From: Naegleria gruberi
Lineage: Eukaryota
DNA length: 3,743 bases
Assembly: GCA_000004985.1 (NCBI GenBank)
Contig: GG739210.1
Strand: one strand, 5' to 3'
The notes under the pieces: generated by a model
What the model saw: the letters and a program-made list of their open reading frames with translations, nothing else
Databases searched by the model: none
What the model was told of the DNA's origin: nothing
Position numbers and translations under genes: made by a program
Part shown: positions 1 through 3,743 of the stretch, piece after piece
Position numbering within the stretch: the stretch's first letter is position 1
Layout: every line of letters begins with the position of its first letter

Positions 1-214
1 TACAATTACACGCTAATAAAAACAGTATCGCCGAAAATTTTATTGTAATTACACACTTTGTTTACAAGTCCACTAGTTTGATGAGAAATAAGGGAAATAG
101 TTCCGACAATCATTAATGATTGAAAACTAACACTTTTCAATGAAACAAAATAAGCTGAGTTCATTCTGGTTGTGTGTTAGCATATTGTTCTCATGTGTAT
201 TAACAGGTATAGCG

Positions 215-242
215 GACACTCAAGTTATATGACACTCAAGTT
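215..242. repeat. Tandem direct repeat of the 12-mer GACACTCAAGTT with a 4-bp ATAT spacer (period 16).
   Basis: Read directly: gacactcaagtt (215-226), atat, gacactcaagtt (231-242). The element is more GC-rich than its surroundings and lies in non-coding DNA. Confidence 0.5.
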
Positions 243-693
243 CTGATTGATGGTTTAAATATATAACAACAATGTATAATAATGATGAATAATAACATCT
301 TACAACAACAATAATAACACATTTGATAATATGATGGTAATGATGATCATTTGGTGCTTTTTGGTATTGTTTGGACAATGATCATCCTATTGATGCAATC
401 TACCGATCCGGTATTGATGGTTATCGACTTCTTTCTTGTTGTTTTGCCTTGCTTAACAACAGTATATACCCTGTATCCATCAATCAACAAATCTACTCGG
501 CCATGATGATGGTAACATTGATCCTAACAAGAATAATTCCTCTAGATCCAAGTACATGACTGCTACTGGTGCTATTCAACATCCACAACAACAACAAAAA
601 TCTTTTTGTGTTCTAATGTGATTTTAAAACACAAACATTGGAAAATCCTTTTCAGAAAATCCTGGAGATGGTTGTGAATTTTGTAAACCTATA

Positions 694-713
694 AATAATA
701 TTTAAATATTATT
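694..713. repeat. 20-bp perfect palindrome AATAATATTTAAATATTATT (A/T only).
   Basis: The sequence 694-713 equals its own reverse complement. It lies in the AT-rich spacer downstream (minus sense) of the LYS2-like block. Confidence 0.5.
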
Positions 714-809
714 ATTACAATGATATGGTTTTTTTTTGGAATTTTGTTATTGTTGTTGTAAAATCATATGATGAAAATGTCCAATATAATTATATTTCCA
801 TTTTTTTTG

Positions 810-1952
810 TTATATTGTTGGTGTAATTTTTACAAAATAGTATTTAACAAAATATTTATTTATAATATTAAAGATATCCAGTCCAAATATTTTGGGCCTG
901 TGAAACAGTGTAATAGGAAAATATTGTTTCATCCATGGATAATAGTGAGTGAGAGGACCGTGTCTTCCCAAAACACCCTTTGGAATACCAGTACTTCCTG
1001 ATGTATAGGTGCAAACAGCAAAGTCATCTTGTGTAATTTTAACATTCAAAGTTGGATCTTCGCTCAAATTGGAATCGTTATAATCAGAGTAGACATTCTC
1101 ATTAAGAATATCAGTCATGGATTTCAATACTGTTACAAACTTGGTATTTTCATTGATAAAATCAATGACAGACTTTGGTAATTGACCAGCAGCTTCAATT
1201 AAAATAACTGCGGATGGTGTTGAAACTTCCAAACAAGTGATAATTCTATCGGCTGGATAAGCAGGATCTAACATGTTGAAAATTGCACCACATTTCAATG
1301 TAGACAAGATGGCCAACACAACTGGACAAGATCTGTGACCAAAGATTGTCACAACCTCCTGTCTCTTCAATCCCTTATGAAGTAAGTGTCTTGATAACTG
1401 ATTGGAAACTCGATTCAATTGTTCAAAGGTAACACTTTCATGATTATCAACCATGGTAATTCTATCTGGTGTTTGTTTAGCTTGTTCTTGGAAAATTTCA
1501 TGAATTGGACCAACGAAATCGTTATTCAAAGCTTTATCAGGGTGTGGTAAAACCTTCTTGGCATATTCAGTCACCAAACTGATATCATAAATAGAGACAT
1601 TGCAATTACTCGACAATACTTGTTCAGAAACTAATTTCAATTGATTCAATAATTCAGCCATTCTCAATTCTGTGAACAAGTTATTTTGATAAATGATACT
1701 GAGTTCGTTAGATTGAGTATTGTAGTGTAAATTTAAATCAACATTCGAAATAGGGAATGGTTTGTCCACCTTAGTGAATGGACCGGCATAGGAACTATAA
1801 GAAACTTGAACGAGTAAATTTGTATCAATATTACCAGCATTAGCATTGTTAGACAAAAATTGTTCGAGAATATTCTTTACATTATTGAAATATGATAAAT
1901 GATTCAATGAATCATTATATGATTGTTGTACATTGTAACAAATTAACTCCAA
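810..1952 (-). pseudogene. LYS2: Lys2-type L-2-aminoadipate reductase gene fragment. The homologous core is ~918..1945 (about residues 85-440 of a ~1390-aa Lys2): Lys2 N-terminal region plus adenylation motifs A1, A2 and A3 only. The 3' stretch 810..917 is a non-homologous AT-rich tail. There is no ATG start (the track M is TTG at 1950-1952) and the first upstream in-frame stop is at 1977-1979.
   Basis: The translation closely matches yeast Lys2 from memory. DFVGPIHEIFQEQAKQTPDRITMVDN matches Sc DFVGCIHDIFQDNAEAFPERTCVVETP. The A1-like VTFEQLNRVSNQLSRHL matches Sc FTYRDINRTSNIVAHYL. The A2-like LKCGAIFNMLDPAYPADR matches Sc LKAGATFSVIDPAYPPAR. AAGQLPKSVIDFINE matches Sc AAGQLDQLVEDYIND. A3 [16 protein letters not shown]...YYPWMKQYF (plus ~918-995) matches Sc [30 protein letters not shown]. 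Immediately after KQYF the frame reads PITLFHRPKIFGLDIFNIINKYFVKYYFVKITPTI*, which has no similarity to the expected ...NLTENDKFTMLSGIAHDPIQRD..., contains CTG codons and is low-complexity. No A4-A10, PCP or reductase-domain motifs appear in any frame of 1..905. I list the ORF as a pseudogene or gene relic rather than an intact CDS. Confidence 0.6.
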
Positions 1953-2483
1953 TAAAACAAAGTTCCAGAACAGATTTTATTTAGTGTTATCTCAAATTTA
2001 TGCAACGAGTATTAAAAAGCTTGAAATATGAACATACACTAACCAATAGGTTCGTATTTATCTTAATGTTTATCGTACATAACAGAACACCGATACAATT
2101 TCTTACCACCAAATGTCAAAGTTACACTATTCCGTCATTAGTACAGGTTTGGGTATATGCTCAAAATATTGTATGTTATTTCGTGTATTATAAGCCAAGA
2201 TATCTAAGATTGTTGATACCGTTTATCAGAAGTGGAAAGCTCCTCTTTATCTACAAACACAGCTCCAAAGTTAATGATAAACTTTACTAGTTAATAGCAT
2301 TCATTTGACATATTCATTACGAAACCGTTGTTAAAAGTCAGCATCTGATGTATCTGTAGTAAGTTGATCTGTACAACCACATGTATATATTTAACATAAT
2401 CGTGTACTAGTATAATGATTATCAATATCCAAGTGTTTGCTTGTTACGATTCTATGATTATCAGTAATATAATATTTACTTAG

Positions 2484-2672
2484 GTATTGCTTGGGTTAGC
2501 TCTTACTTTTCTCCAACCAACTGAATCAGACGAACAAGAAATTAAAGTTTTGACTCCCAGATTCGACTTCAGAACCTGGTTAGCCATTGTAGAGGATGAT
2601 GATTCTAACAATCACATTGATTTCACAACTGCTACCAGTAACTTGTGGCTTTTTTCTCAAGATTCCTTTTAA
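2484..2672 (+). other. Unassigned open frame (62 codons, no ATG; the track start is TTG) encoding an acidic peptide ...TESDEQEIKVLTPRFDFRTWLAIVEDDDSNNHIDFTTATSNLWLFSQDSF*. It could be a terminal exon of an unrecognised plus-strand gene or may be spurious.
   Basis: It opens right after TAG at 2481-2483, which also forms a ...tatttacttAG| acceptor-like context. Its codon choice (ccc, ttc, gac, acc, gcc, gag, ctc) is less A/T3-biased than the two recognisable genes. I recognise no homology. Confidence 0.12.
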
Positions 2673-3084
2673 ATTTTTTACCTTTTAATTACACACCAAC
2701 TTTTTATTGTGTTGCTCTTGTTTGAGTCACCCAAGTCTGCTTGATAATAGAAAGAAGGTTCAATTTCCATCATTCCAACCACTTTTAATTATTTATGGCT
2801 TTAAATGTTAGAATATTTCTTGACTTGAAATTTTTCACTTACCTCTCTCTATCTACGGAAAACAAGCTGTTTCTAACTGATGGTTGCAATTAACAAATTC
2901 ATCAAGAAAAATCATGTCTTAATCAAAAAACAAGCAAAGGATATTATACTTATTTTTCCAATCCATTCTGCATCTCTTATTGGCACTTTGTTTTAAAACC
3001 TAATTAAATTTGATGACGGATTGTTGCTTTGAATTGAAAAAGGAATTATGTTGTGACAAAAGAATAGAAAGTCTCTAACATGTT

Positions 3085-3115
3085 AAAAATATAAATTTAT
3101 ATAAAAATTATATTA
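3085..3115 (-). terminator. Putative 3'-end processing / poly(A) region for the MVP gene: AT-rich block with a TATATA element 60-90 nt downstream of the TAG stop.
   Basis: The minus-strand sequence downstream of the stop is ...ttgtttaatataatttttatataaatttatatttttaaca.... TATATA lies at plus 3098-3103 and is palindromic, flanked by A-rich runs. This is the efficiency-element pattern used in yeast-like 3' ends. The call is by analogy only. Confidence 0.25.
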
Positions 3116-3142
3116 AACAACTTGATTTCTACAACTCATTCC

Positions 3143-3170
3143 TCTTGTTGTTTGTTGGTTGTTGTTTGAT
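3143..3170. repeat. (TTG/TTGT)n = (CAA/ACAA)n simple-sequence tract immediately downstream of the MVP stop. Similar (CAA)n and (AAT/GAT)n tracts occur at 575-598 and 262-350.
   Basis: Plus strand tcttgttgtttgttggttgttgtttg. Plus strand caacatccacaacaacaacaaaaa at 575-598. aataatgatgaataataacatcttacaacaacaataataacac at 262-320. Confidence 0.45.
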
Positions 3171-3176
3171 AATCAT

Positions 3177-3743
3177 CTAATATTGAGTAACATTTAATTT
3201 CAATTGAGTAGATTGTGGTACAATAGTAGCCTTTCTAACATTCTTTGTTGCATTCATTAATTTAACATATTCAATGTATAAATCACCCTTATCACCATCT
3301 AATAATTGCATAGTTTCCTTAATTTGATTCAATTCACTATCATATTTAGCCTTTTTCAATAAAGAAATTGAATCATTTTCAGCCTTTTCTCTTTCAATTT
3401 TAGCTTGACCTTCAATTCTTGATTTTTCAATCTTTTCTTTTTGCATATTTGAATTTTTGATTTGAATTAAATTCTTTTTCAATTTTGCAAATTCAATTTG
3501 AGATTGAATTTCTTCCTTTTCAGCTAAATTCTTTGCATTTTCTTGTAATTTGTTACACATAATATTCATTGATGATTTAATGGATGAATCTAATAATTGT
3601 GCAATTTCCTTATCAACTGGTCTTAATTCTTTAACATCAACTGCATAAACAAAGAAATTAAATTCTCTAAATAATCTACCATGTACTTGAACTGATGTTT
3701 CATCATTAAATTCTACTTTGTAATCTTTAAATAAATTATTTCT
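3177..3743 (-). CDS. MVP: Major vault protein (MVP) homologue, C-terminal part (end of shoulder domain, cap-helix, cap-ring). The 5' end of the gene lies beyond the window edge at 3743. The track ORF 3177..3569 is only the part after an internal Met.
   Basis: The minus-strand frame stays open from 3743 down to a TAG stop (plus 3177-3179) and reads RNNLFKDYKVEFNDETSVQVHGRLFREFNFFVYAVDVKELRPVDKEIAQLLDSSIKSSMNIMCNKLQENAK...EKSRIEGQAKIEREKAENDS...DLYIEYVKLMNATKNVRKATIVPQSTQLKLNVTQY*. From memory of metazoan MVP, FFVYAVDVKELRPVDKEIAQLLDSSIK aligns with ...[26 protein letters not shown] at the shoulder/cap-helix junction. The long K/E/Q/A-rich helix aligns with the cap-helix, and YVKLMNATKNVRKATIVPQSTQLKLNV aligns with the C-terminal ...[25 protein letters not shown]. 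Codon usage is strongly A/T3-biased and there are no in-frame CTG codons. I cannot run a database search. Confidence 0.7.
   Translation of the reverse strand, partial: RNNLFKDYKVEFNDETSVQVHGRLFREFNFFVYAVDVKELRPVDKEIAQLLDSSIKSSMNIMCNKLQENAKNLAEKEEIQSQIEFAKLKKNLIQIKNSNMQKEKIEKSRIEGQAKIEREKAENDSISLLKKAKYDSELNQIKETMQLLDGDKGDLYIEYVKLMNATKNVRKATIVPQSTQLKLNVTQY

Follow-up and report, generated by a model that had tools for sequence, protein, structure and literature searches.

The window, that is the whole stretch of DNA analysed (3,743 bp, one strand), is a complete, small and unplaced scaffold of the Naegleria gruberi draft genome. It carries the 3′ end of a gene for major vault protein (MVP) and, ~1.2 kb downstream of that gene, a block of coding sequence of LYS2 type that is related to an intact gene of the same genome, NAEGRDRAFT_77825, referred to below as the parent. 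The features, in window coordinates, are as follows.

579 to 662, minus strand: weak, degenerate match to parent residues 499-529, seen in a frameshift-aware alignment and of uncertain status.
663 to 917, minus strand: 3′ breakpoint of the block (917/918) and an AT-rich spacer of 255 bp unrelated to LYS2, which contains a chance stop codon at 810-812.
810 to 1661, minus strand: GenBank/JGI gene model NAEGRDRAFT_54898, with a CDS of 283 aa labelled 'predicted protein'.
810 to 1976, minus strand: the whole open frame, 388 codons and a stop, made up of the LYS2 block with unrelated read-through at both ends.
918 to 1934, minus strand: Lys2-type block, in which residues 160-498 of NAEGRDRAFT_77825 are copied without gaps.
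975 to 1007, minus strand: adenylation motif A3, the last core motif in the block, from direct reading.
1254 to 1298, minus strand: adenylation motif A2, LKCGAIFNMLDPAYP, from direct reading and alignment.
1413 to 1433, minus strand: adenylation motif A1, VTFEQLN, from direct reading and alignment.
1935 to 3176, no strand assigned: 5′ breakpoint of the block (1934/1935) and 1.24 kb without detectable LYS2 N-terminal coding sequence, parent residues 1-159 being absent.
2592 to 2645, plus strand: candidate ubiquitin-activating-enzyme (E1) motif of 18 codons, EDDDSNNHIDFTTATSNL, inside a 61-codon ORF at 2487-2672.
3177 to 3743, minus strand: 3′ end of the MVP gene, its last 188 codons and stop, running off the scaffold (100% identity; Pfam).

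The stop-free frame on the minus strand extends for 388 codons over 813-1976 and is closed by the stop codon at 810-812; in the program-made list of ORFs the Lys2-like frame is given as 810-1952, with 380 aa and a TTG start. The longest frame in dinucleotide-preserving shuffles of the window had a mean of 91 codons, and since in 300 trials it never exceeded 172, a frame of 388 codons is far above chance. The initial annotation gave LYS2 identity to the span 810-1980. As an open frame this stands (810-1976), but genuine homology to LYS2 is confined to 918-1934 within it; the frame opens with 14 codons (1935-1976) and closes with 35 (813-917) of unrelated read-through. The accompanying statement that the fragment lacks an ATG start is correct for the 5′ end of the frame but not for its interior, where there is an in-frame ATG at 1659-1661. 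It is this internal ATG (1661), lying within the conserved region, that serves as the start of NAEGRDRAFT_54898 (EFC35465.1, XP_002668209.1, D2W637), whose protein is 100% identical to the window frame. The annotated ATG, the terminal 35 codons and the stop at 810-812 are accidental.

That the frame holds an open fragment of Lys2 type, cut just after A3, is borne out by profile searches. Pfam AMP-binding matches the block with an E value of 1.7e-35, over profile positions 1-199 of 384 only, and NCBIfam TIGR03443 (L-aminoadipate-semialdehyde dehydrogenase) matches it at positions 153-451 of 1390 with 209 bits. Motifs A1, A2 and A3 are all readable and intact in the block, and LYS2 homology ends ~20 codons past A3; the adenylation domain is thus incomplete in the window, A4-A10 being missing. 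Of the Lys2-specific N-terminal (condensation-like) region the C-terminal portion alone is present, corresponding to parent residues 160-~300. Remnants of AMP-binding were sought in the flanks of the block with Pfam and a profile HMM, and none were found. There is no Pfam match to PP-binding (the phosphopantetheine carrier) anywhere in the window and none to NAD_binding_4 (the NAD(P)H thioester-reductase), domains that the parent has at residues 888-953 and 1009-1270, respectively. An exhaustive search of representative proteins returned mostly giant multi-module NRPSs and no close relative.

The initial annotation had suggested looking for an intact LYS2 elsewhere in the genome, and there is one. 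It was traced via the 90%-identity cluster of NAEGRDRAFT_54898, in which the one other member is NAEGRDRAFT_77825 (EFC50840.1), an N. gruberi protein of LYS2 type with 1,469 aa, encoded on a scaffold of 1,555,553 bp. By tblastn its residues 160-498 correspond to window positions 1934-918, with 336 identities over 339 codons (99.1%) and no gaps, and against the whole window the protein gives no second significant match. The three replacements, in the direction parent to block, are I161V (1929-1931), I300V (1512-1514) and K422N (1146-1148); they are conservative, evenly spread and at variable or semi-variable positions, and the codons in the block are GTA, GTT and AAT, respectively. Measured against the parent, the C-terminus, of which ~950 residues had been noted as missing, is indeed absent (971 residues), and 159 N-terminal residues are gone as well. 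The near-identity upholds what had been offered as an alternative in the initial annotation, namely partial duplication from an intact LYS2 at another site, or else rearrangement or misassembly, and the block, matching the middle of a protein of 1,469 aa, is no naturally shorter member of the ANL superfamily.

The parent itself is domain-complete, with Pfam matches to AMP-binding (1-383 of 384), AMP-binding_C, PP-binding and NAD_binding_4 (1-258 of 258). It matches TIGR03443 over positions 2-1364 of 1390 with 997.4 bits, slightly under the curated cut-off of 1030.1. In the alignment the usual A4 motif is replaced by SGISHDP, which we take to be the Lys2-type form. Fungal alpha-aminoadipate reductases have 33-36% identity to the parent across 95% of its length, and judged by its sequence the parent is of the alpha-aminoadipate reductase family, LYS2 type. 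With respect to that family (TIGR03443, with S. cerevisiae Lys2 and the fungal AAR large subunit), the parent is alike from end to end and has the A-T-R architecture. The window copy shares the segment matching positions 153-451 but, with A1-A3 only, is not a functional member.

Full-length orthologues of the parent are found across Heterolobosea. There are two N. fowleri models, FDP41_005596 (74% identity) and FDP41_010133 (72%), and orthologue proteins from Logan and ENA have 77% and 74% identity; the Willaertia magna orthologue has 66% and that of Acrasis kona, which is named LYS2, has 50%. For N. fowleri and Willaertia together the range is 66-77% with 100% coverage of the parent. Alignment statistics of the Logan contig and the N. 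fowleri locus are identical, and on that contig (788-5209) the N. fowleri orthologue is a single uninterrupted ORF of 4,422 nt. The block aligns with N. fowleri LYS2 at 72.4% nucleotide identity over window positions 924-1760 and by tblastx over 909-1934. Nothing specific was found in the literature on Naegleria together with aminoadipate or lysine biosynthesis.

With an intact, domain-complete gene of LYS2 type in the same genome and orthologues in related genera, the proposal that the fragment is the recently truncated relic of a lost aminoadipate pathway for lysine has to be given up. The truncated yet open state of the fragment is what such a relic would be expected to show, and even so the idea is now improbable in the extreme. 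As N. gruberi keeps the conserved gene, the fragment is uninformative on loss of lysine biosynthesis, and its main value is that of a correction.

Identity to the parent ends abruptly on both sides of 918-1934. At 917/918 the parent goes on past QYF with its own sequence, where the window reads QYF and then PITLFHRPKIF; at 1934/1935 the parent reads KKLLS and then NIQQ, where the window reads LICY and then NVQQ. Searches of the flanks by tblastn, profile HMM and all-frame Pfam revealed no LYS2 similarity, and there are no further LYS2 exons in the 917 bp downstream of the block or the 1,242 bp upstream. A putative N-terminal exon upstream, noticed by eye at ~2480-2660 with a frameshift and a GTAAGA donor, was at null level in profile HMM, tblastn and frameshift-aware alignment. 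Reading the 255-bp spacer as an intron was likewise rejected, for the break lacks a GT and the alternative donor/acceptor pairs all meet a stop. A search for repeats in the window found only ones that are short, of low complexity or not flanking, and around the block no target-site duplication, terminal repeat or poly(A).

Could the block nevertheless be an exon of a larger gene whose other exons are separated from it by long introns or fall outside the scaffold, or encode a functional truncated protein? In favor are the open frame itself and the in-frame ATG from which the annotated 283-aa model is derived. That ATG is inside a conserved domain, however, and the product would comprise less than half of an adenylation domain (profile 1-199 of 384). 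Because the N. fowleri ORF is uninterrupted and the alignments of the orthologues continue unbroken across both breakpoints of the block, the breakpoints are not exon boundaries; an orthologue that is intronless through both of them, a 3′ break without a canonical GT donor and the empty flanks together make either version very unlikely, and the exon block with large introns mentioned in the initial annotation falls with them. Because it has no native start and no A4-A10, carrier or reductase domain, the block cannot make an aminoadipate reductase, and the copy is presumably not expressed as a useful protein.

The surroundings of the block are also relevant to where it came from. In N. fowleri, LYS2 follows an actin gene and precedes genes for an Arf/Ras GTPase, a thiolase and a DUF2076/CHCH protein; neither MVP nor E1 is encoded within 10 kb of it. 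Compared with that locus, neither flank of the block in the window (1-917 or 1935-3176) shows any similarity that could be detected. An exact match of 18 nt between window positions 2616-2633 and the thiolase gene close to LYS2 in N. fowleri shrinks to a hexapeptide, IDFTTA, and is ascribed to chance. The MVP end of the scaffold has counterparts in other material. A metagenome protein of 265 aa is 100% identical to the MVP piece (Pfam MVP_shoulder, E 8.3e-32), and an 856-bp metagenome contig in ENA, from an independent sample, is 100% identical at the DNA level across window positions 3143-3743. Since no N. gruberi protein clusters with the C-terminal MVP piece, the scaffold is suggested to hold unique genomic sequence. 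A 24-mer from the end of the block beside the junction had no matches when scanned in JGI metagenomes.

From comparison of these sequences the block at 918-1934 is probably a young, non-functional duplicate of an internal fragment of NAEGRDRAFT_77825 at an ectopic site. About 1 kb of the coding sequence of the parent, residues 160-498, would have been copied to a site downstream of the MVP gene, where unrelated AT-rich DNA adjoins it on either side, perhaps by DNA-level ectopic duplication or by templated break repair. Direct support comes from the identity to the parent, from the presence of both breakpoints in the sequence, from a parent that is itself intact and conserved, and from an orthologous locus with a different neighborhood; ectopic placement was assessed by way of N. 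fowleri, where the neighbors are actin, GTPase and thiolase genes without MVP and where the locus is unlike the window flanks. That the frame is still open would be due not to selection but to the copy having barely diverged, with three conservative replacements in 339 codons; with so few substitutions the chance that none makes a stop is likely to be high. Some features do not sit easily with a young ectopic duplicate. The scaffold is tiny and unplaced and so of the class where assembly debris gathers, the protein divergence of ~0.9% is within the range of allelic variation or low-coverage sequencing error, the match at 579-662 beyond the spacer is unexpected for simple recent insertion of a fragment, and nothing such as a target-site duplication, a terminal repeat or poly(A) points to a mechanism.

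Several of these features are what would be expected if there were no genomic fragment at all, and the block were instead ~1 kb of true LYS2 joined to unrelated DNA in a chimeric scaffold, or in leftover reads from the other haplotype. A very small unplaced scaffold from a Sanger draft, 99.1% identity of the block to a gene on a main scaffold (which fits allelic difference or sequencing error), abrupt edges of identity at both ends and the failure to find signatures of insertion all accord with an assembly artefact. On the other hand, a gap-free contig with a pair of chimeric junctions separated by just 1,017 bp would be unusual, and co-ligated shotgun inserts selected for size seem unlikely to produce one. 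Rather than bunching at the ends of reads, the three replacements relative to the parent are distributed evenly along the block, the open frame and the motifs are clean without indels of the low-quality type, and the MVP part is confirmed by the independent sample. An artefact of this sort is a possibility to be taken seriously, though a lesser one, and the copy is more likely than not to be physically real in the genome and not a product of assembly. Comparison with the small unplaced scaffolds and haplotigs of heterozygous drafts points in two directions. A tiny scaffold with ~99% identity to part of a main-scaffold gene is typical of them, but here the identity is limited to the central 1 kb, and the flanks and MVP differ from the LYS2 neighborhood of N. 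fowleri.

The weak match beyond the spacer raises a different possibility. In the same frame as the block, 662-579 reads GFSEKD-FPMFVF*NHIRTQKD-FC-CCCGC, with 14 of 31 identities to parent residues 499-529, one stop and three gaps, and these are the residues that directly follow the 3′ break. In a focused frameshift-aware test the score was reached in 2 of 300 shuffles, a figure to be read in the knowledge that the test was devised after the match had been seen by eye; among 147 parent segments scored against the downstream flank, 499-529 came top. Furthermore, the GFSEKD of the window is the state in Willaertia and others, whereas the N. gruberi parent has GFSEND. If real, the match points to an older LYS2 pseudogene, otherwise decayed, whose central 1 kb would be continually overwritten, and so homogenised with the parent, by ectopic gene conversion; conversion tracts would be halted by heterology or by an insertion, the 255-bp spacer for one. 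Yet broad tests of similarity of both flanks to the parent are at null level, nothing was detected for parent segments 533-668 or in the entire upstream flank, Pfam has no match at 579-662, and neither Pfam nor the profile HMM finds an AMP-binding remnant. Other similarities seen by eye in the window turned out to be spurious, and conversion into a copy whose flanks are so decayed is mechanistically hard. Gene conversion is accordingly a doubtful explanation for the block. Should it prove true, the mosaic of 99% and ~45% identity would be a natural instance, in a heterolobosean amoeba, of conversion-tract boundaries set by heterology.

Among known kinds of partial gene copy, the young ectopic duplicate is nearest to the non-processed gene-fragment pseudogene, being a near-identical part-copy at an ectopic site with no start, with most domains missing and with its frame kept by youth. 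It differs from that type in being still free of disabling mutations within the copied block and in being truncated at each end within conserved coding sequence. A processed (retro-copied) pseudogene is a poor comparison, as the copy is internal (160-498 of 1,469), has no poly(A) at 917/918 and is without flanking direct repeats. Fragments captured in the manner of Pack-MULEs or Helitrons differ from it too, there being in the window no flanking terminal inverted repeats, characteristic termini or target-site duplications and no transposase or Rep domain.

Whether partial duplicate or leftover of assembly, the block is an unremarkable derivative of an intact gene. The best treatment of NAEGRDRAFT_54898 (D2W637) is to regard it in the same way, and to give it no separate place among adenylating enzymes when gene families or metabolism are reconstructed. 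If the copy is real, it provides one small data point on DNA-level duplication of gene fragments in Naegleria.

Elsewhere in the window, scans with Rfam and for tRNAs gave no RNA genes. Further pieces of ubiquitin E1, thought from inspection by eye to be on the plus strand at ~330-510 and at 2750-2800, gave no E1 matches in PDB searches. The plus-strand peptide EDDDSNNHIDFTTATSNL at 2592-2645 is close to the invariant SCCH motif of ubiquitin E1. Pfam UBA_E1_SCCH scores 18.2 bits here, under the cut-off of 21, and phmmer against PDB gives a match to S. pombe Uba1 residues 797-821 with an E value of 0.0015, the other matches listed being mostly E1 enzymes; the motif may be another tiny gene fragment or may have arisen by chance.

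Full-length α-aminoadipate reductase of the LYS2 type, as judged by sequence, is conserved in Heterolobosea, being present in Naegleria, Willaertia and Acrasis, and on the NCBIfam model for L-aminoadipate-semialdehyde dehydrogenase, TIGR03443, the protein from this group (P0271, the N. gruberi parent) scores 997 bits, slightly below the curated cut-off of 1030.1. The search for homologous proteins returned matches only up to about 1.75 times the length of the query (at most 658 aa for the 378-aa query and 2,555 aa for the 1,469-aa one), and so, where the query is a fragment, its full-length parent may go undetected unless the 90% cluster is listed. LYS2 of Naegleria fowleri is a single uninterrupted ORF of 4,422 nt (1,473 aa) on a Logan contig (L002, 788-5209). 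Because that ORF runs uninterrupted across the same span, the introns predicted in the GenBank model FDP41_005596, which has 1,417 aa across 4,421 nt (10001-14421 of L003, the N. fowleri LYS2 locus), are probably spurious. A second LYS2-like model in the same assembly, FDP41_010133, is on a 65-kb contig and is possibly a haplotig or duplicate.

Outside the 99%-identical LYS2 block, the following features were found in the window.

579-662, minus strand: degenerate match to residues 499-529 of the parent LYS2, containing a stop
585-600, 744-759 and 3145-3168: short simple repeats of the CAA/TTG type, from the repeat search (pairs I1 and I13)
2592-2645, plus strand: isolated ubiquitin-activating-enzyme E1 motif, within the ORF at 2487-2672
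3177-3743, minus strand: 3′-terminal part of a major vault protein gene, which is truncated at the edge of the scaffold

The degenerate match sits 255 bp past the sharp edge of the block, and its p value is about 0.005-0.01 in tests that were designed after the match had been seen. It reads GFSEKD, which is the Willaertia state, while the N. gruberi parent has GFSEND. The CAA/TTG-type repeats form weak, low-complexity inverted pairs, and the block is not flanked by them.

The E1 motif reads EDDDSNNHIDFTTATSNL, compared with KDDDSNHHIDFITAASNL in Schizosaccharomyces pombe Uba1, and no other E1 sequence was confirmed in its surroundings. Possibly the motif is another very small gene fragment, which would hint at a patchwork of fragments in the region, or else the remnant of a neighbouring gene. 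Window 2616-2633 has 18 nt of exact identity to L003 16842-16859, within the N. fowleri thiolase gene that is two genes downstream of LYS2, though the match amounts to the hexapeptide IDFTTA only and is probably due to chance.

At the major vault protein end, 3143-3743 is 100% identical to an ENA metagenome contig (L001, from ERZ929261, run ERR1078381) that carries the gene 255 nt beyond the window's portion, and the public metagenome PRJEB11402 therefore contains DNA identical to that of N. gruberi.
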